A stretch of 64,000 bases of DNA from a virus, in IMG/VR virus record IMGVR_UViG_3300026512_000005, positions 51,991 through 115,990 of that record; one strand, written 5' to 3'. The notes under the pieces are model-generated. The model saw only the letters and a list, made by a program, of their open reading frames with translations. It did not search any database and was not told the DNA's origin. Positions within the stretch are counted from its first letter, which is position 1, and each line of letters starts with the position of its first letter. Made by a program: the position numbers and the translations under genes. This document shows, in pieces, positions 2,592 to 56,889 of the stretch.

Positions 2592-3998
2592 TTACCACCC
2601 AGCCCCTATAACTCTAGCATGTCCATGCTGTGTCTGTACATTACGTACGCTACCATGATTACTGACTGCACGTGTAGGTTCTCGACTATTAACTAGTCTT
2701 GGTGTAGCACGACTAGCGTAAGAACTACGTCCATTATCATAATCCCTAGACTGTGGTCTATTATAACTAGGCTGTCTATTATAAGACTGTCTATCGTACA
2801 TATCCTCATTAGCTGGTAGACGATCGTTACGTACTGGTGGGTTTTCCCAAGGTGGCAAATCAGCAGTACGTTGATCGTATCTAACAGCTGGTTCTCTAAT
2901 AGGTTCGCGAACTGGACGACTATACGATGCAGGTTGACGATCGTAACTTCTGACTGGTGGTAAGGCTGGTTCTCTAGACTTACTCTCCATTCTATCCCAG
3001 AAACTACCAGTATCGGCTTTTGCCCTTGCGGTTGTGACTGGAGTATTAGATACAGGTATACTACCAGTTAACTCCGAAGGTGTACGTTTTATCTCTTGTT
3101 CCATATCATTAATAATACCAGTTAGATCGACTATATTATATGGTAAAGGTTTAAGTCTTATGAGCTCCTTAATATCATCCTCTATATCGGAAGTTAAGAC
3201 TGAAGCTATTATATTTTCTAACTTACTGTATATTCTATCATACATTGTTAATAACACGTGCGTCGATGGTGCTATTCGATTTAAACTACCTATTTGAATA
3301 CCGTCAACTATATTTGTAATATCTCCCACTATAAATTCAAATAATGATTTAAATGTATGTACGTCTTTGTTACGTAATTTAACATCTAGTACCGTTGTTT
3401 CTTTACTAGGTAAAGTGAATAGTTCTTCACCTATGGGGAAAGTTATTACGCCTATACGGTTATATTTGACATCATTTAACTTGCCACCCTTTGATACTAC
3501 CAAAGTGATATGTTTTTTACTAATGTACTTGTTAACAATATTTTCATATATATGTGACCAGTTTTCCACAGTCTTTTGGTCTATAAGTGTCTTAGCTGTA
3601 GACTTATAACGACTCACTAATGAAGACAATTTCATCAGAGATAAATCATTGACTTCAGTATCGGTACTGGCTAATTTAACTAATAACGCTTCACATAGAT
3701 AATGTATGACACCTAATAATTTAACTTCCATACTAGTCCGTAATTTATTAAAACTGGCGTTACCACCTTTAACCGTACTCTCTAGTAGGGGGTTAAATAA
3801 TGACTTAACGGCATTACCATTCACATCCGTTAATGTGGCTATGTTATCATCTGTAGGTAGGAATGCTGGTAACTTGTTAATAAGCAGTGGTGTTTTACCA
3901 TCTGCTATTGGTACGAAAAGTTGACCATTATCATCAACCACTAAATCTATCATCTCACATAGTCCTCTATAGAACTTTGTTAATACTGTATCTTTCAT
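2592..3998 (-). CDS. phiKZ gp70-like nucleus-associated protein with R/S/Y/P-rich disordered C-terminal tail
   Basis: 468 aa. Synteny between the PicA-like and nvRNAP beta genes; low-complexity C-terminal ~150 aa. Confidence 0.55.
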   Translation of the reverse strand: MKDTVLTKFYRGLCEMIDLVVDDNGQLFVPIADGKTPLLINKLPAFLPTDDNIATLTDVNGNAVKSLFNPLLESTVKGGNASFNKLRTSMEVKLLGVIHYLCEALLVKLASTDTEVNDLSLMKLSSLVSRYKSTAKTLIDQKTVENWSHIYENIVNKYISKKHITLVVSKGGKLNDVKYNRIGVITFPIGEELFTLPSKETTVLDVKLRNKDVHTFKSLFEFIVGDITNIVDGIQIGSLNRIAPSTHVLLTMYDRIYSKLENIIASVLTSDIEDDIKELIRLKPLPYNIVDLTGIINDMEQEIKRTPSELTGSIPVSNTPVTTARAKADTGSFWDRMESKSREPALPPVRSYDRQPASYSRPVREPIREPAVRYDQRTADLPPWENPPVRNDRLPANEDMYDRQSYNRQPSYNRPQSRDYDNGRSSYASRATPRLVNSREPTRAVSNHGSVRNVQTQHGHARVIGAGW

Positions 3999-4015: not shown

Positions 4016-5488
4016 TTATGTATAGTACTCATTGACCATTCCACGTGTAGCATCTCTAGAAACCTCTAATGCTGCATGTAACGCTGTCTCTGTTATTTCC
4101 CCATAATTTTCAGCCATTATATCTTGTCGCATATCATCCATTATAATTGGTGTATATTTAGCATCGGCAAATGTTGGATAGATATACACTACTTCTGGGC
4201 GACCATCCAATGCCATTTTAATTGTCATATCAGTACCATAACAAAATATTTCTAATTTAACTTGTGATTTATTATTGTTAGAAATAATACTCCAAGCCTT
4301 GTTTATGAATGTTGTTACAAATATCTCGCCTTGTATAGGTAAATTGATATTCTCTATAACTGATGTTAATCCATCTACTGTATACATCGGTTCGCCAGCT
4401 ACATTATTAATAGTAAAAACTACATCATCCAAGATTGACATTGACATAATGTGTGATACTGCGTCTTGTATGACCAAGGACATTCTTGTTTCATAACTGG
4501 AATCATCTGTGTACGCACCGTCATCAGTTAAGAACTGGTTACTATTAATTCTTTTAGCTGTATCTGTAGATGTCCTTACTATTATGTCTGGGTACTGACT
4601 ATCTATTAAGGATAAATCCTCTAGGGTGAAATCAGTGGCTTCACGTGATTGTATCTGGTATAATAGTTTATAGAAGTCTATGTCACTAGATGTTAGCGAT
4701 AACAGGTCACCTGTTGCTGTATCATAGATGTCGCTATCTGTTCCAGTAACACCATTTATCATAGCGTTGTCCATCAATGTAGATATAGTTTTAGATAGAT
4801 GACCCATAGGTGTTGTTTCATCTTTACTAGTAATCTGTACATTATCCAGTGAACCTATGTTGGACACGAACTTAGTATTTGCACGAACACCTTTTAAACT
4901 AGAAATTCTAGACATAATATCATCTGGTCTAGATACCTTTAGCTGACTCATGATATTATTCATAGATACAGCTGTTTCATCATATGCAACACTATATACA
5001 CCTAATGGTACTGTAACAATACTACCTGTATGGTAATCTACAGTTTTACGTAAAACACTAATACTATTTATGAATATACGCATTTTATCATCTATAGTAC
5101 CCTTATAGGAAATACCTAGAAACTCTGAATACCCAGAGATATAGTTAATGGTTGTGGTATTAGACCCTCTGTGTTTTATCTCTAATACTATAGTTACAAA
5201 GAAACGCTTCTCACTCCATCCATTAATAATTGGTGCTTGTGAAATAATTTGTGCAGATGGCATGAGTATATTGGGGTTAGCTTTGTTCATATATGTTTCT
5301 ATCATATCACGATTGGTACTACCTCTACCCATAGCGTTAATCACTACCGACTTAATTTTATTTAAATCATCATAATTAGCACTGACCTCATATGGTCGTA
5401 TATTCATAGGTTTATATGATTTTGTTTCGATTAGTTCGATATGCGTTATACGTATATCAGGACCTTGTTGCTGTTGCGGGTAATTCAT
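4016..5488 (-). CDS. picA: Putative phage-nucleus protein importer PicA/Imp1 (phiKZ gp69-like)
   Basis: 490 aa, directly downstream of the gp68-like gene in the conserved Chimalliviridae block. Motifs RPY, INGW..KRF, Y..PTFAD...TP. Assignment rests mainly on synteny. Confidence 0.6.
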   Translation of the reverse strand: MNYPQQQQGPDIRITHIELIETKSYKPMNIRPYEVSANYDDLNKIKSVVINAMGRGSTNRDMIETYMNKANPNILMPSAQIISQAPIINGWSEKRFFVTIVLEIKHRGSNTTTINYISGYSEFLGISYKGTIDDKMRIFINSISVLRKTVDYHTGSIVTVPLGVYSVAYDETAVSMNNIMSQLKVSRPDDIMSRISSLKGVRANTKFVSNIGSLDNVQITSKDETTPMGHLSKTISTLMDNAMINGVTGTDSDIYDTATGDLLSLTSSDIDFYKLLYQIQSREATDFTLEDLSLIDSQYPDIIVRTSTDTAKRINSNQFLTDDGAYTDDSSYETRMSLVIQDAVSHIMSMSILDDVVFTINNVAGEPMYTVDGLTSVIENINLPIQGEIFVTTFINKAWSIISNNNKSQVKLEIFCYGTDMTIKMALDGRPEVVYIYPTFADAKYTPIIMDDMRQDIMAENYGEITETALHAALEVSRDATRGMVNEYYT

Positions 5489-5514
5489 GTTACCTCCTTA
5501 TATCTTTTTTATAT

Positions 5515-5532
5515 TTACATTTTAATAATATA
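5515..5532 (-). promoter_or_regulatory. Putative early promoter
   Basis: TATATTATTAAAATG upstream of the picA-like gene. Confidence 0.65.
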
Positions 5533-5538
5533 TGTATG

Positions 5539-7086
5539 TTAATGTTTAGAGTCTACTGTTAGTATCATATGGGCTAACTCATTTTTTATATCTTCTCGTA
5601 TCGCAACTTCACGATTTCGTGTATCGAAGTAACGCTCTAATAAATCTTCGCTAAATATACTAAATAAATTATAACCCATAAGTTTTTTACTTAAAATAGT
5701 TATACTGTCATCTATATAGTTCACTTCTTTTTCTTGTCCATTAATTACGCTATCCTTCTGATACGGAAACGCTTCAATAAGACCATCGCGAATTTCGCTA
5801 TCCAATTTATTCCGTAGTGAGAAATTTAACTTAAATACATCTGTACTTATAGAGGTTGTAGTTAACATAAGTGCTAGGTTTTCGTAACCATTTTCGTATA
5901 GCCATATAAAGGACAAAGCCAAATGTATAAATGTTTCGCCCTCTAAGTACACAAAAGCACGAGGGTCCATTATATGTTTATGTATGATGCTAGCTATATA
6001 AATGTTCTCTTCTACTGGCAATAAATCCAAGGTTGTTTCTAATGATTTAAAAACTTTGATAATCTCATTAACTTCTTGTAGTTTTGTTGTAATACCTAAA
6101 TCATGCACCAACTTAGGTACGTTTCTAGATACATTTTTAAACTCTTCTATAAAACCACTATTAACATCAGAATTAGACCGACCACTTTCAAATACTGATT
6201 CTGCATCACCTGTATCGGTATCTTCGTTCTTGAAATACTTTATCTTTGTCTTAGACCCATTCTCTTTTAGATTAAGTTGGTCAGAAGCAAATGTATATAT
6301 CTTAGTTACTGTATTTCGTAACTCACTATCCTCCGTTTCATTGTTTAATAATAATTTCTGTATAACAACTTTACCTGTTACATAAAATGGAAAGATATCA
6401 GTTGTCAGATTACGTTCGATTATCTTTATAGCTGTACCCTCACTATTCTTCAATAATCGTTCCACCAATTTTATTAGTGATTGAAATATTTTAACAAATG
6501 GGTCAGATTTAAACAATGGGTGTGTTCTATAGAAATTAAAAAGTATCATCTCCTTATAATCAGTGCCGCCTATTACTTCCTCTTTAATAGTTGCAAAATT
6601 ACCAAGTGGACCTGTTGTTGCTTTAAGTATAGTTATTAAAGCGATAAGTTCGATATAATCGTTACGAGTATATGTTTGCTCCCTTGAACCTTTTTCGTCT
6701 AGGTCACGTGTTGTATCGTACTCTTCCGGAAACTTAGGTGGTATTTTAACATACTTAGATGTTTTAATATATTCTATCACATCTTGTAAGTCCATATAGT
6801 CTAGAACGTTATGGATTACCTTATTGGGTAGAACATCTACGTCATCACGAGATATGTTGAGAATAATCAGGTTTTTACATTCTACTAACCGATCGTATAA
6901 TCCGTCTATATACTCCTTACCTTTATATTCTAAATATCCATTTAGAATAACAAATACCGATTTTGGTAGTATTGCATCTCGTAATCTTCTATTAACAATA
7001 GTCTCTATTACAAACTCTACTGTTTTACCAGTTGTATTTGTAAAGACCACTGACACCTCCGTATTAACATTCTTTAATGAATACAT
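5539..7086 (-). CDS. Non-virion RNAP promoter-specificity subunit (phiKZ gp68-like)
   Basis: 515 aa; motif GSREQTYTRNDYIELIAL; size and synteny match the fifth nvRNAP subunit. Confidence 0.65.
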   Translation of the reverse strand: MYSLKNVNTEVSVVFTNTTGKTVEFVIETIVNRRLRDAILPKSVFVILNGYLEYKGKEYIDGLYDRLVECKNLIILNISRDDVDVLPNKVIHNVLDYMDLQDVIEYIKTSKYVKIPPKFPEEYDTTRDLDEKGSREQTYTRNDYIELIALITILKATTGPLGNFATIKEEVIGGTDYKEMILFNFYRTHPLFKSDPFVKIFQSLIKLVERLLKNSEGTAIKIIERNLTTDIFPFYVTGKVVIQKLLLNNETEDSELRNTVTKIYTFASDQLNLKENGSKTKIKYFKNEDTDTGDAESVFESGRSNSDVNSGFIEEFKNVSRNVPKLVHDLGITTKLQEVNEIIKVFKSLETTLDLLPVEENIYIASIIHKHIMDPRAFVYLEGETFIHLALSFIWLYENGYENLALMLTTTSISTDVFKLNFSLRNKLDSEIRDGLIEAFPYQKDSVINGQEKEVNYIDDSITILSKKLMGYNLFSIFSEDLLERYFDTRNREVAIREDIKNELAHMILTVDSKH

Positions 7087-7112
7087 ATTTACTTCCTTTT
7101 ATATTATTATGT

Positions 7113-7130
7113 TTACATCTTAATAATATA
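7113..7130 (-). promoter_or_regulatory. Putative early promoter
   Basis: TATATTATTAAGATG upstream of the gp68-like gene. Confidence 0.65.
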
Positions 7131-7161
7131 TGCCAATAAAAGGATAGAGGTTAAAGTACAC

Positions 7162-7189
7162 CTATCATATGGTGTTTTCCATATGATAG
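7162..7189. terminator. Palindromic hairpin downstream of the chmC-like gene
   Basis: CTATCATATGG-6nt-CCATATGATAG. Confidence 0.55.
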
Positions 7190-7196
7190 TTTCTTG

Positions 7197-7757
7197 TTAA
7201 TAGGCTTTATCTTTTTTAACTTCTAAACCCTCTGGAAACATATCTAACATGGCTTTGACGGTATCGGAGTACGCCTCCGTCCATAGTGTAGACAATTTGG
7301 TTTTATCTTTAATTAACTCACCATTTTCAACAATTGTTATATATGGGGTTGGCAATAAACCGAATGAAAACTTCTGTTCCTTGTCAGTAGTTATCTGTAT
7401 AACGTTAACTAACCCACCGTCTGTTTTAACTCGTAATATCGTAAGTTTACCATTTAACACCTTTTCGTTGTGTACACGCTTGTCATCTTCAAATTTAGCA
7501 CCATATAGATTAAACGTAACACTATAACCTTCTTTCTCATCATTGATACGAGCTAAAGCTCTACTGAATAGTCTAGAGTTAATATGTGTTAATGCCAAGT
7601 TACCTACAGAATCGAAAGACTTATAATCATCGCGTTTAACTGTATTAATATAAAGTCTAATAGTACCATTATATACACCATATGATAACGTTAAAAGTTT
7701 ATTATCTTTTATTTCTTTATAGAGTTTCAATTTACTCATTATTACATTTACATTCAT
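7197..7757 (-). CDS. chmC: Putative ChmC-like (Whirly-fold) phage-nucleus RNA-binding protein
   Basis: 186 aa with a repeated beta-rich/helix pattern (LTLSYGVYNGTIRLYINT...); immediately upstream of the gp68-like gene as in Chimalliviridae. Confidence 0.55.
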   Translation of the reverse strand: MNVNVIMSKLKLYKEIKDNKLLTLSYGVYNGTIRLYINTVKRDDYKSFDSVGNLALTHINSRLFSRALARINDEKEGYSVTFNLYGAKFEDDKRVHNEKVLNGKLTILRVKTDGGLVNVIQITTDKEQKFSFGLLPTPYITIVENGELIKDKTKLSTLWTEAYSDTVKAMLDMFPEGLEVKKDKAY

Positions 7758-7824
7758 TTGTTACTTCCTTATTTATATTTATCATATAAGATATCGTAGT
7801 TAATAAAAAGAAAAAAACAATGAT

Positions 7825-8297
7825 AACATTCTATCTGTAGACACACAAAGTGTGTCTACAGATATATAAATGTTTAGTGGTGCGTGCTATACTCATGTAT
7901 AGGAAGTAACTATGAGGTTTAAACATACTTACCGAACTGAATGTTGTGACTATTCTAATTAACAGTATAATGTAAGTATAATTAAAACATAGACTGAACT
8001 ATGTTTGGTTGTACGTTAGTACATATTTGTAAATATAATAAAGGACACCACTTGATGATTATTTCATCTGTTGGTTCATAGCAATGAACTTACATCTGGT
8101 ATTAATTACCCGATATGACCATTATAGCACTTGTCATATTTAGATGTTAAAAAAGGAAATCCAAGACACCTTAACCCAATCATTTAGTTAAGCAGGACAA
8201 AATTGTATTTAAAATTTCAAGTATCCATCACAATCATAGAACACTCTATCTACTAATAACGGCTCGTAACATTATTAGCAGATTAAAGTGTTCTCTC
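7825..8297 (-). ncRNA. Candidate large structured non-coding RNA (~470 nt), unknown family
   Basis: ORF-poor 557-bp intergenic region filled with nested helices. Mismatches are A.C on + and therefore G.U on -. TATG motif at the 5' end, hairpin plus U-tract at the 3' end. Confidence 0.6.
7832..7864 (-). terminator. 15-bp stem hairpin followed by a U-rich tract on the minus strand
   Basis: TATCTGTAGACACAC-aaa-GTGTGTCTACAGATA, with A-tract 7805-7817 on the + strand. Confidence 0.7.
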
Positions 8298-8314
8298 ATA
8301 TAATAGAAAACCAT

Positions 8315-9256
8315 TTAATAAAGTTTGCGGTATAACTTTTCTATCTCACCACCCAATACTGGATCGCGTCGTTTAATACTAGCTAACACTTCATTATTGG
8401 ACATTCGTGTAGACCAGCGTTGGTCCATAGCTATTGTATAAATATGCTTCCGTAGCTTAACGTTCTGTGGTTTAATATATACTTTATCGCCCAGTATAGG
8501 ATACAAAACTTCGGTAAAAGGAAATACGGTCATACTATTCTTACCCAGTCTGTGATATTTACTCCACCACGTATCATTATGTTTTATAGCACCGGTGTGT
8601 GATTCTAATAACTTAACATCCGCCTTAGACCTAAAGTTCAATAAATCGAAAGCTATGTGTGTTGTTATAAGTAGGTCTTTTACATACTTTAACTTATGTG
8701 TTGTTTTTACTACTAAAGCTTTGAATGGTATTAATAAATCTTTGATAGCGTCATCCTCCGTTATCTGTATATGATAGTTAATAGATGTGAAGTCATCCTT
8801 ATCTTTAAAATTAAACCAATTCTTTTTAAGTATATTATAGTCTGGTATATAAATCTGTACATCCATACCTAAACCTAAAGCTGCTTCTATAAAAATTTTT
8901 GTATCTTCTACAAAGCCTTTACGTATCTGTAAAAACGTAATAGATGATTTAAGGTATTTAATTTTACTGTTGGTGTTACCATCTAGGCAATTTACATAAT
9001 TCCTATATAAAGTTCTGGCGTTTATATAATATACTTTATTTTCTACATCTTTACGAATAAGATTTTCGAGTATAATACCTGACGCAATATTACAGCCTAT
9101 GTCAGAAATGGCTTCGGTATTTAGAACAACACCTGCTGTAACTTCCCTTGCCAATAACTTATCTAAATCAATTTTACTAATACTATCGGAAATAGTGTCC
9201 GTAGTATTAGTAACAGTTTTCATGGCTCTATCACGCATATGTGTCAACCCTGTCAT
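8315..9256 (-). CDS. Conserved phiKZ-like protein (gp66-like; possibly degenerate PIN/FEN-like nuclease fold)
   Basis: Motifs YINARTLYRN, ITTH..DLL, LLESHTG, ILGD; synteny with SbcD and ChmC. Confidence 0.5.
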   Translation of the reverse strand: MTGLTHMRDRAMKTVTNTTDTISDSISKIDLDKLLAREVTAGVVLNTEAISDIGCNIASGIILENLIRKDVENKVYYINARTLYRNYVNCLDGNTNSKIKYLKSSITFLQIRKGFVEDTKIFIEAALGLGMDVQIYIPDYNILKKNWFNFKDKDDFTSINYHIQITEDDAIKDLLIPFKALVVKTTHKLKYVKDLLITTHIAFDLLNFRSKADVKLLESHTGAIKHNDTWWSKYHRLGKNSMTVFPFTEVLYPILGDKVYIKPQNVKLRKHIYTIAMDQRWSTRMSNNEVLASIKRRDPVLGGEIEKLYRKLY

Positions 9257-9258
9257 AC

Positions 9259-9888
9259 TTACTCCTTACAATGTTCTTTAATAATATCTCTAACTTTATA
9301 CTTATCAATTCTATCAACATCTTTTTGCAAATTCCTAACATCATTACCATAGGCTCTCATGTAAAGCTTCGGATACTCAATATACCCGTTACTACCAAAT
9401 TTTTCATGAAGATGTTCAACTATACTTTGGTAAATTTCATTTACTTTTTTACCTTCTCTATAATGATATTTATAACTCCTACAAATCATCTCTGTTAATA
9501 TCAAACGACCTTTATCGGCTGTTGCAATTAACTCAGCCAGTTCACCACTAAAGTTCACTATTTGTAGAGACGAACGATGTTCATAAACCGCGATGGCTAT
9601 ACGATTACGAGTAATTTGATCCAATTCTTTTAGGAAAATATCATCAGTATTTAGTAACACATAATCGTGAGCCAGCTTATTATGTAACTTTCTATCTTCA
9701 CCAGTAAAGATATCATGAATATATGCAGCTAGTATAATTTCCTTTTTATCTATCTTAAGATTTAGCCGTTCGTTTATATCCAATGCATTATTACAAACAT
9801 CATCTGCATGGTCTATTTTATGTGCTTCATCATTTTTATCATAATAATGTTTATAATAACTTCTAACTTCTTCTCTAAATTCTACCAT
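9259..9888 (-). CDS. HD-domain phosphohydrolase
   Basis: H...H (AHKIDH), AAYIHD, EH and ATAD motifs. Confidence 0.85.
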   Translation of the reverse strand: MVEFREEVRSYYKHYYDKNDEAHKIDHADDVCNNALDINERLNLKIDKKEIILAAYIHDIFTGEDRKLHNKLAHDYVLLNTDDIFLKELDQITRNRIAIAVYEHRSSLQIVNFSGELAELIATADKGRLILTEMICRSYKYHYREGKKVNEIYQSIVEHLHEKFGSNGYIEYPKLYMRAYGNDVRNLQKDVDRIDKYKVRDIIKEHCKE

Positions 9889-9918
9889 TTGTATTCCTTA
9901 TTATTTTATGTTTACACA

Positions 9919-11031
9919 TTAATGATGTACATCTGTAAGTTTTTGTAATTCATTTACTATAACTTTTATATCTATACCATCCTTTCTGGCTTCCTCTAGT
10001 ATATGATTAGTTATAATAGACTTGTCTAACTTAATAATATCACGGGATATACGTTTAGGATTTAAGATTTTATCAACTTTCTTATCAGAACGTTTCTCTA
10101 TCTTAAGATTTAGATGTGGGAACAACTTATGCAACTCTTTTATGTTACTCTTTAGTGTATTAAAATTGTCGGTTATTAACCTAAGATATTGTCGTCTTTG
10201 TTTTATTTTGTTAAGTAATGAACGGATATCCTGTATATTACTATTACCAACGTCTATTGTTCTAAATTTTAATCTGTTCTTATTCTCCAGAAATCTGTAC
10301 TTAAATGTACTATTTTTTAAATTCATGTGTATCATTAATGCACCCTTTTTAACATCATCATCTTCATGAGTTAATGAATCAATGCTACCTGGAATTAGGA
10401 TATTCTTATATACAGAATGTTTATGAACGTGTCCGCAAATTATGGGTCCTTTACAAATGTCTATATAATTATCTGGGTTATGTAAATTCTCTATGAAATC
10501 TGGTAATTGAAAAGTAAAAGCTCCATGCATGATAATAACATCAACTGTTTTTAAATTATGTTCTCGTAACTTAAGCTGTACATCCTTGTATATATCTTTA
10601 GCAGTAACATTCCATTCATCCGGCAAATATAGAATATTTATATCCTCTTCATCTAGATGCTCTATACTTAACGATTCTACATATCTAAAGTCTACATCCA
10701 TGTCTAACGCCTCTATAATACTATAGATTATTTTAACCTGTTTCCAATCATGACTAGGTGTTCCCTCCAGAATACGTAGTTTAATATTAAACCCTTTACA
10801 GAATAGTACTAACTCTGATAACCATTGTTTAATCATAATCATCTCTGCGCTATTAGCACTGAGTAGTCTATCGAACGTATCACCAGATATAGCTATCATA
10901 TCTGCTTTAGTAATTTGCGTGTGATATGTCTTAAATAATTTACGTACATTAAATATAATATCCTCAGTTTTATTAGTATTATGTCCCAGATGTATATCTG
11001 ATAAAACAAATATTGAAAATTGTTCTAGCAT
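9919..11031 (-). CDS. sbcD: SbcD/Mre11-like metallophosphoesterase nuclease
   Basis: LSDIHLG, GDTFD, GTPSHD, MHG and GHVH motifs. Confidence 0.9.
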   Translation of the reverse strand: MLEQFSIFVLSDIHLGHNTNKTEDIIFNVRKLFKTYHTQITKADMIAISGDTFDRLLSANSAEMIMIKQWLSELVLFCKGFNIKLRILEGTPSHDWKQVKIIYSIIEALDMDVDFRYVESLSIEHLDEEDINILYLPDEWNVTAKDIYKDVQLKLREHNLKTVDVIIMHGAFTFQLPDFIENLHNPDNYIDICKGPIICGHVHKHSVYKNILIPGSIDSLTHEDDDVKKGALMIHMNLKNSTFKYRFLENKNRLKFRTIDVGNSNIQDIRSLLNKIKQRRQYLRLITDNFNTLKSNIKELHKLFPHLNLKIEKRSDKKVDKILNPKRISRDIIKLDKSIITNHILEEARKDGIDIKVIVNELQKLTDVHH

Positions 11032-11493: not shown

Positions 11494-12058
11494 TTTAAAG
11501 AAGGTCAATGCGGTATTAATAAATAGTCACCTTGAGGAGCTAACTGAACTTAGTGAGCGTTTGGCACCTATAAGCGAGGTTAGTGAGGATATAACGATAG
11601 AAGAGTTTGAGTTATACTTCTTACCGTTTATAATAGGTGAGCTGGAGTTTAATGATGAAAATAAAACAATCTTCTTTTATAATTACAAAAAGATTGCTAA
11701 AGGTGTAACGACACCACTATACGTTATAGAGGATGATGAGGTTAAGTACAAGCTACCGCCTATGTTAGTTACGAATGATTTAGATGGATTAGATGAATTT
11801 AATTTTCATAGAATATTAAATGTGTTCTCTAATACAAAAGACACTAATCCAATGGTTGCGGACAAGTTTTTAGCTAGCAGTTTAAATACTATCTCTGATG
11901 AAATAAACACTAGTAAAAAATACGACTTATATATAAATGAGTTACGTAGAATATATGCAGATTATAGTTACAGACTAAAAGTTGATGTGAAAGATGAAAA
12001 GTCTACGCAAACAGTTAAGGACGAAGAAATAGAAGAAGACTTTATAGAATACTACTAG
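11486..12058 (+). CDS. Conserved hypothetical protein with acidic C-terminus
   Basis: 190 aa, AGGAG RBS, overlaps the previous gene; FLPF and LPP motifs. Confidence 0.6.
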   Translation: MDDLKKVNAVLINSHLEELTELSERLAPISEVSEDITIEEFELYFLPFIIGELEFNDENKTIFFYNYKKIAKGVTTPLYVIEDDEVKYKLPPMLVTNDLDGLDEFNFHRILNVFSNTKDTNPMVADKFLASSLNTISDEINTSKKYDLYINELRRIYADYSYRLKVDVKDEKSTQTVKDEEIEEDFIEYY

Positions 12059-12080
12059 TATAGCAAATGCTATACTAGTA
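12053..12080. terminator. Bidirectional hairpin between convergent genes
   Basis: TACTAGTATAGC-aaat-GCTATACTAGTA, containing both TAG stops. Confidence 0.65.
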
Positions 12081-24516: not shown

Positions 24517-27354
24517 ATGAATAAACATGAACAACTTATGAAGGAATTACAGGTAGCTGTGTATGACCCAAATATAATACAGATAAAAAGTTTAAAATTA
24601 TTACAAGCACAGTTGAATGGCGAATGTAATATACCTGATGCCACTAATCCGTTTATATTCCTTATGGAGAATAACGCAATGGTAACAAGTGCCGCAGTAC
24701 ATGAAACTGCAGTTAATTTTAGACGAACCTATCCAGAATTGGCAACCAGTAAAACCGATCTATATGGACATATAAATACTAACGAGGTTAATAATATATT
24801 TGCCGGACCCAGTAAGGCTATGTTTAATATATATCTAGGTGCAGATGAAATAATGAAGTTCGGTAAAATCACTGGTACATTTAGTAGCATTATAGTCCCT
24901 AAGTTCAGTAATATAACTGTTGATGAAATAACATTTACTTTATTAAATGATTTACAGATTTACCTATATAGTAATGGTAAAACTTTTGCCAAATACACTT
25001 ATAACAACATAGAAATAGGTGTTAATACAGATAACATTTTAAAGTCTACATTGGTAAGTGATAAAAACGGTAAAAAATGGTTAATGGTTGAGTTGGAAAT
25101 ACAGCAACTTAAGCGTTACACTTTCAGAGAAACACTTATGAACAGTGTACCATTTAATACAACATTTAACCTAGGTGATGATGAAAGATTCACATATATA
25201 GAAACTAGGAGCCTTAACAAACAAACCAGTGAAGTTATTAGATTACATACGACATTTAGTCAGTTTGTTTATAATCCCGACGTACCTACTATGATCATAA
25301 AACCAGATAACAATAAAATTAATTTGGAACTACCGGTTACTTATACTCTTAATAAATTAATCTCTAGCTTTATAGATGTAGAACTTTTTACCACACTAGG
25401 TAAAAGGATAATACCTCTTAATAAATATGACACACTTGATTATGTTTTTAAAGTGGTGTTACCTAATACAACAGATGAGTCAATTATAGGTATAAACAAC
25501 ATACCTATAAAAGTTAATTCTAACAGCTATACATATGGTGGGCAAGATGAGATAACCTTTAAATCACTTAAAAATAAAGTAATGAACTATGCTACTGGTG
25601 ATAATAACTTACCTATAACTACACATGAGATTAAAAGTAGAGTTGAAGAGTATGGTTATAAATTTAAACGCATAAATACATCCATACTTAAAAGTGAAGT
25701 TTTAATTACTAAAGATATAGGTGCGTTAGATTATGACCTAAAAACTAACTTAACCCTGATATCTGGAGATATTACAATTAAACCTGCCGATGTTACAAGT
25801 AGTAAAATACATATTATTAGTTCTACTAAGTTATCTATAGAGCCATTTCAGTTATTTAAGAATGTGAATGGTACAACTATACCGTTAAATGATGTAGAAA
25901 GAATTAAAGTTACTGAAGATGCTAAATCTAATATATCCGAGTATAATAAACAGAAGATATATTTTAACTTATATAAATATGTACTAGACTATAGTAGCCT
26001 TGTTAACGTACGTGTGTACGATGTTAACCAGCCAACTTTGAATAATGCCACTACGTTATATAACAGTAGTGAACTATATACCCCATTTGTCATTACAAAA
26101 CGTAACCTAGTGAACGTCGGTGGTAACTATAAAATTATCTATAACATAGTACCTAACAGTGAGATAGATAAGTTAGATCTAGATAAATTATTTGTTCAAC
26201 TTTATATACCGTTAGGTACTAATGAAAAAATATATTTTAAAGGTACATTCCACCGTACTGAAACAGACCTAGTGATGACCATAAACTTAAAACTTAGTTA
26301 TTATATAGATAAAGATAATAAGACAATGATAAGTACTGATGTCGGCGTTATTCGTAATGCCTATATAGATATTATCGCCCAAGGTAATATAACAATTTAT
26401 AGTGTCGACCAAGCTATGGTTACAAGTAGTAATATTAACCCTCCTGAAGTGGTTATTGATGAAAGTACTTTTGTAGTTTATAGTGAACATTTTAACTTAA
26501 CATTTGCCAAGAGTTTAGAACACCTATTTGTCAGCTATGCATTGGAGTATACCGATAGAAAATTTAAAACTTATGATAAAGATGTTTATAAGACATATGA
26601 TGCTGATGTCTATGAAACTGATGAAACTGGTACCATAAAAATAACTAAAACAAATGATAATGATGTAATCTTTAACATCCTACATAAAAAAGGCGATGTA
26701 ATGATGTATAGTGATAAACCTATTATTGTACACAAAAAAGGCGATATAATGCTAGATAGTGATATGATGCCTATTGTGGATCACATTTTAGGTATTAGTC
26801 ACAAACTTAACATATTACTAATGGAAGATCATTTCCTACGCACTACTAATGACATATATAAACGCTATCGTATAGATTACTTTATTAGGTTAACAGATAT
26901 CATAACTAAAGAATTAGAACCGATTGATAAAGAACTGTTGGACAATACTGCTATTAAGTTCTCACCTAATGTAAGTCTTAGTGATGTCTATATAGAGACT
27001 AATGGTGAAATTAAAAGTTACACTAACCAGATAAGTCCTACTATCAATATCTACTTAGGCAATGAAACCAGTTTAGAGGTAACCGATGAATTAGGAAAAC
27101 GTTTATATAACTATCTACAATCTAGATTGTACGAAAATGTAACTATACGCTCTATTGAAGATGGTCTAACTAAATTAATCGATACAGATATACTGACGAT
27201 AAAGTTAACAGATGTAACCCCAGATAATAACCTTAACATTCTGAATTATACCATGGAGAGTAGTAAGTTTATTATAAATAAAACTTTGACATTCTTAGAA
27301 GATAGTACACTTATAGTAAAACCAGAACTAAAGATAAACTTAATAACTATATAG
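24517..27354 (+). CDS. Large virion structural protein (gp87-like, putative baseplate wedge)
   Basis: 945 aa; motifs DATNPF.FLME, YPELA...DLY.H and HKKGD repeats. Confidence 0.65.
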   Translation: MNKHEQLMKELQVAVYDPNIIQIKSLKLLQAQLNGECNIPDATNPFIFLMENNAMVTSAAVHETAVNFRRTYPELATSKTDLYGHINTNEVNNIFAGPSKAMFNIYLGADEIMKFGKITGTFSSIIVPKFSNITVDEITFTLLNDLQIYLYSNGKTFAKYTYNNIEIGVNTDNILKSTLVSDKNGKKWLMVELEIQQLKRYTFRETLMNSVPFNTTFNLGDDERFTYIETRSLNKQTSEVIRLHTTFSQFVYNPDVPTMIIKPDNNKINLELPVTYTLNKLISSFIDVELFTTLGKRIIPLNKYDTLDYVFKVVLPNTTDESIIGINNIPIKVNSNSYTYGGQDEITFKSLKNKVMNYATGDNNLPITTHEIKSRVEEYGYKFKRINTSILKSEVLITKDIGALDYDLKTNLTLISGDITIKPADVTSSKIHIISSTKLSIEPFQLFKNVNGTTIPLNDVERIKVTEDAKSNISEYNKQKIYFNLYKYVLDYSSLVNVRVYDVNQPTLNNATTLYNSSELYTPFVITKRNLVNVGGNYKIIYNIVPNSEIDKLDLDKLFVQLYIPLGTNEKIYFKGTFHRTETDLVMTINLKLSYYIDKDNKTMISTDVGVIRNAYIDIIAQGNITIYSVDQAMVTSSNINPPEVVIDESTFVVYSEHFNLTFAKSLEHLFVSYALEYTDRKFKTYDKDVYKTYDADVYETDETGTIKITKTNDNDVIFNILHKKGDVMMYSDKPIIVHKKGDIMLDSDMMPIVDHILGISHKLNILLMEDHFLRTTNDIYKRYRIDYFIRLTDIITKELEPIDKELLDNTAIKFSPNVSLSDVYIETNGEIKSYTNQISPTINIYLGNETSLEVTDELGKRLYNYLQSRLYENVTIRSIEDGLTKLIDTDILTIKLTDVTPDNNLNILNYTMESSKFIINKTLTFLEDSTLIVKPELKINLITI

Positions 27355-27381
27355 ATAGGACATATGTCCTATCTATATAGT
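27346..27381. terminator. 36-bp perfect palindrome between convergent genes
   Basis: ACTATATAGATAGGACATATGTCCTATCTATATAGT. Confidence 0.65.
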
Positions 27382-29276: not shown

Positions 29277-29352
29277 TATAACTCCTTATATTCAAAGTAT
29301 CAATCTTTTTTGTAAAATGAATCTTATGACGTTAAATAAAAAAGGATTGTTA

Positions 29353-29724
29353 ATGGCGATGTTTTACATAGATGACTATATAAGTTACAATAGTTTCAGG
29401 AAGATAACCGGTGTTAGTTGGGAGATATCCGCTGATAAAGAGTTTACTAAACTAATCTCTTCTACATACAATAATAAGAATGCTATTAATGGATGGTATA
29501 CTCCATTAAAACGCTTGGATACTGACGGTTATTATGGTGAATTTGATACCTTATTTAGTCGTTGTAAAATACATACAGAAATATATGGTAAAGACAATAC
29601 AAGCGAATGGTTTGTTAAAGAATTGAACACGGGTATAGTTAAGAGTGTATTAATAAAGCGAAAAGATAAAGTTATAGGTGAGATAGCTGAATATAAAGAT
29701 GGGACATATAAAATACTATGGTAG
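29353..29724 (+). CDS. Small protein with Ig/FN3-like virion domain
   Basis: Start at MAMFYI (AAAGGA RBS) rather than 29035. Motif VSWEIS.D.EF...S.W, similar to the N-terminus of 60219-62033. Confidence 0.5.
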   Translation: MAMFYIDDYISYNSFRKITGVSWEISADKEFTKLISSTYNNKNAINGWYTPLKRLDTDGYYGEFDTLFSRCKIHTEIYGKDNTSEWFVKELNTGIVKSVLIKRKDKVIGEIAEYKDGTYKILW

Positions 29725-29743
29725 TATAGCACGCGCTATACTA
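29722..29743. terminator. Bidirectional hairpin between convergent genes
   Basis: TAGTATAGC-acgc-GCTATACTA, bounded by both TAG stops. Confidence 0.6.
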
Positions 29744-38282: not shown

Positions 38283-38310
38283 CTATATAGGAGAGTATTC
38301 TCCTATATAG
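38283..38310. terminator. Bidirectional hairpin between convergent genes
   Basis: CTATATAGGAGA-gtat-TCTCCTATATAG. Confidence 0.65.
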
Positions 38311-45106: not shown

Positions 45107-45254
45107 TAAGTATATATATTTAGATATATTGTTATATATATCTATTAAGATTATAGCTCTATACATAGTCTTTAATAATCCTATATAATTATAATACTCT
45201 TAAGGTAGATGTTACCTAAGATATAATAAAGGATATATATATATAACTAATAAT

Positions 45255-45490
45255 CTTCATCCTCCCACGCCCACCCAAACGTGTAAGTCCTTCCTAAGGT
45301 CAGGTCTTACATCCTCCCCTCCTTTCCCCACTGTTCACAGTAGTTGCTGTGTACGATTATGTCCGATAACTTCACACGCAGGGACTGGCGTTCCAACCAG
45401 TCCCTGTATGCTACTCGTCCATAAAATAAGAGTGGTCGCTACGGTTCTCGTAACTAGATAGCAGTGATCGCAACTAGACTTGGTTATTAT
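45255..45490. other. GC-rich structured non-coding island (ncRNA or replication/packaging element)
   Basis: C-tracts, CATCCTCCC twice, hairpins 45282-45311 and 45379-45406; flanked by a TA-rich tract. Confidence 0.45.
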
Positions 45491-45621
45491 GTAATAAGAG
45501 TTAAGCTAGTATTTAGATATGATTATCCTTCTTAGTTTTTAAATCATTTTATAACTATGCATATAAAAAAAAGTTTATATTTACTATATAAGAATGGGTT
45601 GATATATAAAAAAGGATAATT

Positions 45622-47778
45622 ATGTTACAACATAGAAGTTTGGAATATGAATTTAATAGTAGAACTCATAGATATAAGATAAAAATAGACAAAGCTCTAA
45701 TGGTAGAGAAAGCTATTAAAAAGTTAATAGGTAAGACGGCAGTCAAACACATGTTTATTAAAGTTAATAATATCGGTTTTGAAGTATATGATTTCTTTCT
45801 TCTAGAGTTAGAGTTCTGTCTAAACTTCATGAAAGAGGAAAACCATATTTTAGCTTTAGATATTGGTGGTATTGTACTCAATGATTTACTAGATTTTCTA
45901 CGTACTAAAACATGGTTACATAGTAGACACATTGTTAATACTAAGAAATTATTTGATTTCAACAATTTAAAAAAGAATATGTTATATATGCCATTGGAAC
46001 ATCAAGTCAGTGCCTTTGATAAATATGAAGAAATTAAACAATATGCTAATTTAAAAGGCGGTATGTTGGATATTGCTGCTGGTGGCGGTAAAACCTTTTC
46101 TTCTTTAGCCATGGTCGAATTATTAGACTACGATTTAGTTATAATAATAGCACCTAAAAACACGTTAGGTGAAGTATGGGAGAAATCAGTTAGTGAAGAA
46201 CTATACAGACAGAAACAAAGCAATGTTATACTTGGTACCAATAGTAAGGTTTATAACAACGAAAAGTTTATAATAACACATTATCAATATGTAGAGAAAA
46301 TACTTAAAGATAAGAAATTAGCACGACGTGTTAAAAGATTAAAACCTGCATTAATTATTGATGAGTTCCATAACCTTAACGAAATTAAGTCAGAACGTAC
46401 GAATAACATCCTTAATTTTATTAACTACATCAAGTTCAGGGATGTTATTTTATTAACAGGTACCCCCATTAAAATGGTCGTGAACGAACTAGTTCCTATG
46501 TTGTATATACTAGATGATAAATTCCCAAAGGTTGTAGACAGATTTAAAGAATTCTATAGAAGTCTAACTGGTATAAAAGTCGACCTAATTAGACATAGAT
46601 TTAATCTATATAGAAAACGTATAGAAAATACAAATCCAAGTATGGGTAATATTGAATTAATAGAATATAAACTTAAGGTTCCTGATGGCGAACAATATAC
46701 TATGGGGAATATCAATGCACGTATGACTGAATATAAACATACTAGATTAGAAGAGTTATTTAATCATATGGATGAATATGAATTACAGTTCTATACCTAC
46801 ATAGATAGTATGTCTGATTTATATAAGAAGGATGATGCTTTCATAGAGTCTAAAGAAAAAATAAAACGGTATAGACGATTGGTAAAGATAATACGTAAGG
46901 CTTCTGACGATAACAAATTATTTAATTTCTATACAGAGGTTAGTGAAGCTTCATTAATAGAAAAAGAATGGATATTACCAAAGTTAAAAGGTTATGATAA
47001 ACACAACTTTAAACAATTACGTTCTATTATTAAATACCCCAAACTGAAGGTACTTGGCGAAGCGTTGGGTAAAATATTGTTAGGTAGTAGAATACGTTGT
47101 TATACATCTCTAGCGGAACAGATTGACTACAAGAAACACCTTTTATTAACCAATAAGAAAGGTCTAGTATTTAGTAACTATATATCGGTATGTAATGTGG
47201 CGGTAGAACGTTGTCGTAAACAAGGTTATAACCCAGTAGGTGTATATGGTGATTTAATAGATAACTTAGATAATAATGTTAAACAGTTTAATGACTTAGA
47301 GACGGACATTAACCCTATCATAGCTACCTATAAATCACTAAGTACTGGCGTACCTTTACCATCTGCTAATATCGTTATACTCATAGATGTGCCGATGCGT
47401 GTTTATAATTTAGAACAGGCTATAAGTAGGTCTTATAGACTTGGTAACTATGAAGATGTTCTAGTTCTGTTTACAAAACTTGATACTGGTACAGAATTTA
47501 ATATAACTGAACGTGATTTATTTATAGTAAATACTAGTGAACATAATGTTGAGTTAATAACTGGTACTAGTCCAGTTTTCGATACACCTAAACAGGACTT
47601 ACCACTATCAGAATTAGAAGACGATGAAGACGATGATGGTGAAGTCATAAACGAGATAAAAGAAGAAATAGAGGAGATAGTATTAGCCGAGTTTAACAAG
47701 ATGGATGTTAAAATAAAACTTGGTACTAATCCATTAGATTATGTTAAATCAGTTTTAAAAAAGATAACTTTCATATAG
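45622..47778 (+). CDS. Superfamily 2 (DEAD/SNF2-like) helicase
   Basis: Q motif HQ, AAGGGKT, IIDEFH, LTGTP, STGV and QAISR..RLG motifs. Confidence 0.9.
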   Translation: MLQHRSLEYEFNSRTHRYKIKIDKALMVEKAIKKLIGKTAVKHMFIKVNNIGFEVYDFFLLELEFCLNFMKEENHILALDIGGIVLNDLLDFLRTKTWLHSRHIVNTKKLFDFNNLKKNMLYMPLEHQVSAFDKYEEIKQYANLKGGMLDIAAGGGKTFSSLAMVELLDYDLVIIIAPKNTLGEVWEKSVSEELYRQKQSNVILGTNSKVYNNEKFIITHYQYVEKILKDKKLARRVKRLKPALIIDEFHNLNEIKSERTNNILNFINYIKFRDVILLTGTPIKMVVNELVPMLYILDDKFPKVVDRFKEFYRSLTGIKVDLIRHRFNLYRKRIENTNPSMGNIELIEYKLKVPDGEQYTMGNINARMTEYKHTRLEELFNHMDEYELQFYTYIDSMSDLYKKDDAFIESKEKIKRYRRLVKIIRKASDDNKLFNFYTEVSEASLIEKEWILPKLKGYDKHNFKQLRSIIKYPKLKVLGEALGKILLGSRIRCYTSLAEQIDYKKHLLLTNKKGLVFSNYISVCNVAVERCRKQGYNPVGVYGDLIDNLDNNVKQFNDLETDINPIIATYKSLSTGVPLPSANIVILIDVPMRVYNLEQAISRSYRLGNYEDVLVLFTKLDTGTEFNITERDLFIVNTSEHNVELITGTSPVFDTPKQDLPLSELEDDEDDDGEVINEIKEEIEEIVLAEFNKMDVKIKLGTNPLDYVKSVLKKITFI

Positions 47779-47803
47779 TACTAGGGTTATCCCTAGTACT
47801 ATA
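47774..47803. terminator. Bidirectional hairpin between convergent genes
   Basis: TATAGTACTAGGG-ttat-CCCTAGTACTATA. Confidence 0.65.
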
Positions 47804-56856: not shown

Positions 56857-56889
56857 CTATAACTACAAGGATAGTCCTTGTAGTTATAG
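56857..56889. terminator. Bidirectional hairpin between convergent genes
   Basis: CTATAACTACAAGGA-tag-TCCTTGTAGTTATAG. Confidence 0.65.

Follow-up and report, generated by a model that had tools for sequence, protein, structure and literature searches.

RNA-level gene regulation in nucleus-forming jumbo phages is barely charted. In these phages, ChmC is an abundant RNA-binding protein thought to help messenger RNA (mRNA) exit the phage nucleus; to our knowledge, there are no known regulatory inputs to ChmC. As for better studied phages, RNase III cuts the early mRNA of T7 at hairpins located between genes. In phage T4, leaders that sequester the ribosome-binding site (RBS) precede genes e, soc, 49 and I-TevI (PMC3014915). 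Regarding the phiKZ-like phages, three facts are pertinent here: (i) gp67 of phiKZ corresponds to ChmC, for which a Whirly-type fold class has been reported (PMC11077065); (ii) the late promoter of the phiKZ non-virion RNA polymerase (nvRNAP) is TATG, with initiation at the G (PMC12809450); and (iii) phiKZ and 201phi2-1 produce short transcription units which end just past their start site (PMC11512511; bioRxiv 10.1101/2023.10.13.562163). Here, we analyse a 557-bp gap (positions 7758-8314) located between two minus-strand genes, a gp66-like core gene and a ChmC-like gene, of a chimallivirus represented by IMG/VR record IMGVR_UViG_3300026512_000005. The stretch of DNA analysed (hereafter, the window) comprises the last 64 kb (positions 51,991 to 115,990) of this 115,990-bp record, which has 31% GC and is ~40% complete; coordinates are those of the window unless marked as genome coordinates.

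The gap had been presented in a first-pass annotation as a stand-alone, multi-domain structured RNA of ~470 nt. In our analysis, it is better read as a lineage-specific and probably transcribed spacer or long 3' untranslated region (3'UTR) whose ends would be functional and which may include a T4-like occlusion of the downstream RBS, and not as a large structured RNA gene; we assign to this reading a probability of roughly 0.5. Four features are clearly above chance: (i) the insertion itself; (ii) a strand-specific hairpin behind the upstream stop codon; (iii) a boundary hairpin at the opposite end; and (iv) a 10+3-nt complement of the RBS of the ChmC-like gene.

The absence of genes from the gap, already pointed out in the first-pass annotation, is real: there is no credible open reading frame (ORF), none exceeds 31 aa, and the minus strand lacks any small ORF preceded by a Shine-Dalgarno (SD) sequence, in a genome whose median intergenic gap is 43 bp (from crude gene calls). 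Since stop codons of the three types appear in the six frames at the density expected at random, a recoded genetic code does not open the gap, and recoded stop codons were discarded as its explanation. The six-frame read-through of the gap (with stops as X) matched no family of the PHROGs.

The same junction is tight in other phages. In the closest relative with available DNA, IMG/VR 3300026521_000161 (hereafter, L003), whose gp66-like and ChmC-like proteins show 39% and 32% identity, respectively, the junction measures 39 bp. It spans 65-87 bp in SURPRISE13 (Burkholderia) and SL2 (Phikzvirus), and 11-58 bp in Vibrio phage BONAISHI, Aeromonas phage D6 and Xanthomonas phage Xoo-sp14. Bacillus phage vB_BspM_AgentSmith has at this position (2842-3402) an opposite-strand gene of 186 aa, with weak PHROG matches to tail-fibre-like families (E ~1e-3), and hence the gp66-chmC junction tolerates insertions. 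As six relatives hold 11-87 bp at the junction and AgentSmith another gene, the extra ~470 nt are a lineage-specific insertion; the comparison of this intergenic region among related phages, suggested in the first-pass annotation, finds the stretch lacking at the junction in seven relatives. A pseudogene of the AgentSmith insert was also considered and rejected, as tblastn revealed no similarity to the gap. By blastn, the gap matched none of 50,697 phage records, and its matches to its own genome and to a relative (G001) were limited to short, chance ones within coding sequence. Scans of IMG/VR, JGI metagenome and GTDB data with single proteins, alignments and a 20-mer led to one relative contig only, together with a fragment of 1.6 kb whose end falls within the gp66-like gene. 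Closer relatives exist at the protein level (P0002, P0003 and P0066; 43-49% identity).

The first end of the spacer is marked by a long imperfect hairpin of 93 nt (8220-8312, minus strand), which begins 3 nt past the stop codon of the gp66-like gene (TAA, 8317-8315) and comprises 3+9+10+14 = 36 bp, including seven G.U pairs that become A.C mismatches on the plus strand. The segment 8220-8314 folds at -37.7 kcal/mol (z -7.34) on the minus strand versus only -18.1 kcal/mol on the plus strand. Likewise, when the 177-nt windows of the genome are ranked by stability, the one containing this hairpin comes within the top six for the minus strand (z -3.55) and does not stand out for the plus strand (z +0.46). 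Because its energy is halved and its stability rank lost on the plus strand, the long hairpin is an RNA-level feature of the minus strand, in agreement with the minus-strand RNA previously deduced from the G.U pairs. This asymmetry is strong only in the 5' hairpin, as that of the entire 490-nt fold is not unusual for the genome (z -0.8).

The helix had been thought to start right after the sequence TTATATG at 8303-8297, a phiKZ-type core of a late promoter. Actually, additional helices of 9 bp and 3 bp take in this motif and start near the stop codon: the basal 9-bp helix (8307-8299/8232-8224; pair probability 0.95; three G.U pairs) contains five of the seven bases of TTATATG. Given its start 3 nt past the stop codon and the inclusion of TTATATG in the basal helix, the long hairpin is more easily reconciled with read-through transcription from the gp66-like gene than with a transcript begun at G8297, in which the inner 24 bp would still form. 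Its role could be that of a 3'-end stabiliser, a terminator or a processing site for a double-strand RNase.

The proposal of a promoter at 8303-8297 does not find support in the frequency of the motif, which occurs 63 times in the genome (14 of them intergenic) versus ~61 expected from composition. The TATG rule with initiation at the G, invoked for it, matches the published one (PMC12809450); precisely because the phiKZ promoter is merely TATG, the match is compatible yet uninformative. A longer promoter-like class, formed by a T-run followed by GTATATTAC and then TTATATGA, is present upstream of a few genes, and the site at 8303 has only TTATATGA in common with it. This longer motif contains TATATTAC, which we take to be the phiKZ early-promoter motif. 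Its minus-strand sites are found at genome positions 19607, 31927, 88213 (window 36223), 94869 (window 42879) and 101106 (window 49116). The form TTATATGATAAATATAA is located upstream of three genes of this phage, one of which is the ChmC-like gene. De novo promoter motif discovery by Gibbs sampling yielded no crisp motif and was dropped.

At the other end, the minus strand forms a 22-bp hairpin (7825-7874) made of 15 perfect base pairs (7832-7864) and a 7-bp extension, and the segment 7810-7875 folds at -27.2 kcal/mol (z -8.35). Of the 15-bp terminator with a U-tract described in the first-pass annotation, the perfect stem holds; by contrast, the U-tract does not abut it, as the U7CU5 run (7818-7804) lies 6 nt past the extended stem and 14 nt past the perfect one. 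In the genome, 53 perfect inverted repeats were counted (stem, 9-16 bp; loop, 3-14 nt), ~40 of which are intergenic and constitute a genome-wide class of boundary or terminator hairpins. They mostly have 4-nt loops and stems of 10-16 bp, many are rich in CTATA/TATAG, and few are followed by a T-run; examples in the window are 2215-2240, 7162-7189, 12053-12080, 27346-27381, 38283-38310, 47774-47803 and 56857-56889. The 3' hairpin at 7825-7874 is a member of this ordinary gene-boundary class.

Between both hairpins, the picture is different. The 344-nt central spacer (7876-8219) is AT-rich and contains several hairpins of 5-9 bp, as well as a multiloop of 177 nt (8052-7876) whose closing helix is G/C-rich and 8 bp long. 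The helices listed in the first-pass annotation are all complementary, and they reach pair probabilities of 0.86-1.0 with one exception (8092-8097/8142-8147; 0.33). Nevertheless, the notion of a multi-domain RNA almost fully covered by nested helices does not survive comparison with shuffled sequences. On the minus strand, the centre gives z -1.72, with an equal or better fold in 3 of 100 shuffles, and its positional entropy, ensemble diversity and fraction of well-defined positions are like those of the shuffles. Relative to the genome, 177-nt windows through the centre have z values from -0.4 to -1.5 on the minus strand and from +0.6 to -2.1 on the plus strand, and the multiloop domain 7876-8052 ranks 92 (minus) and 54 (plus) among 1,963 windows of that length. 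The shuffle z of the slightly longer segment 7876-8235 (minus) varied between runs, -1.1 versus -2.25, and therefore the 100-shuffle value for 7876-8219 was relied upon. As the fold of the centre is ordinary for AT-rich sequence, the multi-domain picture is an RNAfold drawing that does not rise above the usual. A stand-alone structured RNA gene should display structure above shuffles along its full length, and here it is clearly above chance only in the two end hairpins. The fold-energy comparison with shuffles on both strands, suggested in the first-pass annotation, hence turned out positive for the whole region 7810-8300 (RNAfold, minus -133.7 kcal/mol, z -6.09; plus -117.0 kcal/mol, z -5.08) and only marginal for the central 344 nt, as the signal is carried by the terminal hairpins.

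The fourth feature concerns the RBS of the ChmC-like gene, whose SD region, AGGAAGUAAC, occupies 7760-7769 and whose AUG is at 7757-7755. Upstream, within the central spacer, a 14-nt segment (7901-7914) reads CAU-A-GUUACUUCCU in the minus-strand RNA and is the complement of this SD and AUG (anti-RBS). The 10+3-bp pairing of 7914-7901 with 7769-7755 has a predicted probability of ~0.93 in read-through transcripts from 8314 or 8060; in a shorter read-through construct, it gives way to weak pairing with the U-tract. A promoter-like TTATATG (ATAAATATAA) at 7790-7784, 26 nt upstream of the start of the ChmC-like gene, lies between the anti-RBS arm and the RBS. According to the prediction, the locus thus shows the arrangement of T4 gene e, that is, an upstream arm on SD and AUG with a promoter-like motif between. 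The sequence AGGAAGTA is present nine times in the genome, and six of these copies lie 9-14 nt before a start codon and are true RBSs; one of the six is the RBS of the ChmC-like gene itself (AGGAAGTAAC-AA-ATG).

From these features, we infer the following course of events. The otherwise tight gp66-chmC junction of this chimallivirus holds a lineage-specific, non-coding insertion of ~470 nt. Minus-strand transcription would cover this insertion either jointly with the gp66-like gene or immediately after it, so that the inserted stretch would serve as a long 3'UTR or an intercistronic spacer. The 36-bp G.U-rich hairpin after the gp66-like stop codon would stabilise the 3' end, terminate transcription or be cut by a double-strand RNase, while the boundary hairpin and its U-run would end upstream transcription ahead of the ChmC-like gene's own promoter. 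On those transcripts that read through, the anti-RBS at 7914-7901 might pair with the SD and AUG of the ChmC-like gene. In that case, this gene would be translated only from transcripts initiated at the proximal promoter, as occurs in T4 with e, soc, 49 and I-TevI. The central ~340 nt have no demonstrable structure or function and are probably a leftover of the inserted sequence.

Several observations weigh against this interpretation. First, after regression on GC, the minus strand of 7810-8300 is the lowest in energy of 236 non-overlapping 490-nt windows of the genome. Second, the outer arms of the two end hairpins (AACATTCTATCT and AACACTCTATCT) are identical in 11 of 12 positions and share the basal arm AACAYTCTATCT, with one compensatory pair change (U-A/C-G) in the partner arms, which hints at a paired function of both hairpins around the spacer; AACAYTCTATCT was discarded as a genome-wide repeat, since the exact motif occurs solely at these two hairpins. 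Third, there is no U-tract after the long 5' hairpin, and a consensus/pattern terminator scan does not call the 3' hairpin, due to the displacement of its U-run 6-14 nt from the stem. Fourth, 3 of 110 genes have by chance, within 380 nt upstream, a stretch of 10 nt or longer perfectly complementary to their RBS window, and L003 has no anti-RBS, its ChmC-like RBS being predicted to be open. For these two reasons, the RBS occlusion may be fortuitous, or else a by-product of a plus-strand RBS fossil. Finally, the proposal does not explain why a compact genome would retain 340 nt of apparently inert sequence.

The fossil just mentioned leads to the rival that survives best, albeit as an unlikely full account of the locus: a small plus-strand gene, or a mobile insert, that decayed between the core genes and left a drifting sequence with no present RNA function. 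On the plus strand, the segment 7901-7914 reads AGGAAGTAAC-T-ATG, an exact copy of the strong RBS with the correct spacing to the ATG, and it would be the fossil of an RBS and start codon; the hairpin at 8220-8312 would correspond to the terminator of formerly convergent genes. The six true RBSs among the nine AGGAAGTA sites argue in its favour, and so do the divergent gene pairs elsewhere in this genome, which yield the same type of inverted RBS repeat. In AgentSmith, an opposite-strand gene occupies this very junction, with the same divergent/convergent orientation relative to its neighbours. Moreover, the GC and AT skews of the spacer are neutral to slightly plus-like, ~2 standard deviations from those of minus-strand genes, and stop codons are as dense as expected at random. 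On the other hand, the spacer resembles neither the PHROGs in six frames nor the AgentSmith insert, the ORF after the ATG has just 16 codons (7912-7962), no plus-strand promoter is evident, and the long hairpin, with its seven G.U pairs, is adapted to the minus strand. In any case, a transcribed spacer (as to present function) and an opposite-strand relic (as to origin) can both be true.

The shared arms and the exceptional stability of the whole region lend some weight to a second rival, which we regard as doubtful: a discrete, trans-acting non-coding RNA (ncRNA) of ~350-490 nt, either started at the TATG at 8297 or excised between hairpins that protect its ends. It might, for instance, act as a CU-rich anti-RBS on AGGAAGUAA-type RBSs (those of the ChmC-like gene, the gp68-like gene and a few others) or as a ligand of ChmC. 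Hairpins at both ends are common in stable RNAs, and here they flank the genome's most stable minus-strand 490-nt window (z -6.1) and have in common 11 of 12 positions of the basal arm, with a compensatory change. TTATATG at 8303-8297 agrees with the phiKZ rule (PMC12809450), and two other large minus-strand gaps also have this motif near their upstream end; the anti-RBS matches the strong RBS form of ~6 genes; and jumbo phages are known to make small RNAs (sRNAs), both intergenic and derived from 5'UTRs (PMC11512511). Against it stand the centre, not structured above chance, and the motif TTATATG, found as often as expected and partly base-paired within the hairpin. UCCU motifs (4 versus ~1.6 expected) are not significantly enriched, and the known chimallivirus sRNAs are shorter than 250 nt (PMC11512511).

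Neither does the candidate ncRNA match a known family, and the stretch itself is missing in seven relatives. There were zero Rfam matches at gathering threshold across the window, GOLLD, ROOL, tmRNA, RNase P and group I/II introns included, and the best hits within 7000-9000 at E<=10 were chance microRNA and sRNA hairpins (14-19.5 bits, versus gathering thresholds of 41-200). ARAGORN found no tRNA or tmRNA. Accordingly, the first-pass statement that the region is not a tRNA, tmRNA, RNase P or intron holds at these thresholds, whereas its suggestion of a GOLLD/ROOL-like RNA does not. A more specific form of this rival, in which release of the spacer yields a stable RNA (~350-490 nt) with paralogous end hairpins and an exposed anti-RBS, CAUAGUUACUUCCU, that titrates or silences AGGAAGUAA-type RBSs, seems improbable to us. 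If true, the phage would use the released RNA to regulate in trans genes for its nucleus and for transcription (the ChmC-like gene, the one encoding the gp68-like nvRNAP subunit and a few others), and ChmC might handle this RNA.

Two further explanations can be dismissed briefly. Translated micro-proteins, such as a 16-aa plus-strand ORF at 7912-7962 (behind the perfect RBS and ATG of 7901-7914) or a 17-aa one at 8203-8256 (AGGA), would account for the SD-like AGGA before two short plus-strand ORFs, but they are very improbable, as ORFs of 16-17 codons are not above random length at 31% GC and have no homologues, and the block would be transcribed from the minus strand, with no evident plus-strand promoter. 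A DNA-level element (replication origin, packaging site or protein-binding palindromes) agrees with an AT-rich, non-coding sequence whose inverted repeats fold on both strands, but it is hardly credible in view of the lack of iterons, direct-repeat arrays and skew inflection (the grounds on which a replication origin was rejected), the much weaker long hairpin as a plus-strand or DNA-symmetric structure owing to the seven G.U pairs, and the presence of such perfect palindromes at ~40 gene boundaries.

As regards the surroundings of the spacer, every gene across 4016-11031 is on the minus strand. In order of transcription, they encode (i) an SbcD-like nuclease (9919-11031); (ii) an HD protein (9259-9888); (iii) the gp66-like core protein of 313 aa, phrog_3229 (8315-9256), upstream flank of the gap; and, after the gap, (iv) the ChmC-like protein of 186 aa (7197-7757); (v) a 515-aa phrog_3209 protein; and (vi) a 490-aa phrog_3141 protein. 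The gp66-like protein has homologues in 218 phage records, all below 32% identity, which according to their organism names are chiefly phiKZ-like and other jumbo phages. It carries an N-terminal extension of ~36 aa that is missing in its closest homologues, P0002-P0004 (313 versus 277-282 aa); perhaps its start was annotated too far upstream; otherwise, these residues would be lineage-specific.

The 186-aa protein occupies the position of gp67, between the gp66-like and gp68-like (~515-aa) genes of a conserved core block. The order SbcD-like, gp66-like, ~220-255-aa protein and ~515-aa protein is found in SL2, SURPRISE13, BONAISHI, D6, Xoo-sp14 and L003. Among 5.8 billion proteins, it has only two relatives, P0066 (43% identity) and the L003 orthologue (32%), and it shows neither BLASTP similarity to the gp67 homologue of Phikzvirus SL2 nor a PHROG match. 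An AlphaFold2 model from a three-sequence alignment (predicted local distance difference test, pLDDT, 65.8; predicted template modelling score, pTM, 0.62) has the topology beta4-alpha beta4-alpha. In the PDB, Foldseek matched this model best to PUR-alpha (E 5e-5), plant Whirly proteins and T. brucei MRP1/2 (2GJE among them), with modest TM-scores of 0.35-0.48. The protein stops ~14 residues past its last helix, so it does not have the disordered, N/G-rich C-terminal tail of ChmC, while the L003 orthologue is 34 aa longer. Given this synteny and predicted fold, and no sequence match, the term ChmC-like, already used in the first-pass annotation, is supported by position and by the modelled Whirly/PUR-like fold, and not by sequence similarity or by the disordered tail.

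Near this gene, a 31-nt palindromic element (TATATTATTA-11 nt-TAATAATATA) has two copies in the genome (window 7100-7130 and genome 8675-8705), each preceding a gene whose RBS is of the AAGGA type. A related motif containing ATGTAAA is enriched upstream of genes (10 regions versus 1.8 expected) and is also present upstream of the ChmC-like gene of L003.

Other large gaps exist in this genome. Three of them (genome 36237-36677, and window 51671-52207 and 52454-53038) contain no ORF longer than ~55 aa and none with an SD sequence; just downstream of the first one, at genome 36751, starts the most stable plus-strand 490-nt window of the genome. The gap at 29277-29740, which has a TTATATG close to its upstream end, could be no more than a gene missed by the gene calls, since it holds a 135-aa plus-strand ORF and a 66-aa minus-strand ORF preceded by an SD sequence. 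The ORF-free gap of 433 nt at 45189-45621 (core ~45240-45500) contains a GC-rich island with C-rich runs: a 177-nt window within it reaches a GC content of 0.49, versus 0.31 for the genome, and it includes a 10-bp G/C hairpin (45379-45406). Its minus-strand fold has a residual z of -3.1, and it matches no Rfam family at gathering threshold and no tRNA. By composition, this island is a stronger ncRNA candidate than the gap at 7758-8314.

The value of the stretch studied here, a spacer of one uncultured phage, is that of a lead for transcriptomics of the clade, and not of a new RNA class. If the layout of an anti-RBS plus an own promoter were true, it would be a first hint that translation of chmC is gated by the origin of the transcript, in the manner of T4 late genes.

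Compared with the systems described so far, the spacer resembles the GOLLD and ROOL RNAs in its length of several hundred nucleotides and its phage context, and differs from them in that it has no covariance-model match up to E 10, no structure above chance in its centre and no family of homologues. With the T7 RNase III hairpins it has in common a long (>20 bp), imperfect, double-stranded hairpin between cistrons, whose cleavage would leave a protective 3' stem on the upstream message; unlike in T7, chimallivirus mRNAs are made inside the phage nucleus. The phages phiKZ and 201phi2-1 belong to the same phage group and also have many intergenic stem-loops (PMC11512511; bioRxiv 10.1101/2023.10.13.562163); their published sRNAs, however, were filtered to less than 250 nt and one is conserved across genera, while the present spacer has 470-490 nt and is lineage-specific. 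Finally, the T4 leaders form a compact local stem-loop, whereas here 131 nt, including a terminator-like hairpin, separate the two arms, and their pairing is predicted, is not kept in L003 and could have arisen by chance or as a fossil. Nonetheless, as in the T4 leaders, a complement of the SD and AUG lies upstream and a promoter-like motif is placed between both, so that long transcripts are predicted to be silent and promoter-proximal ones open.

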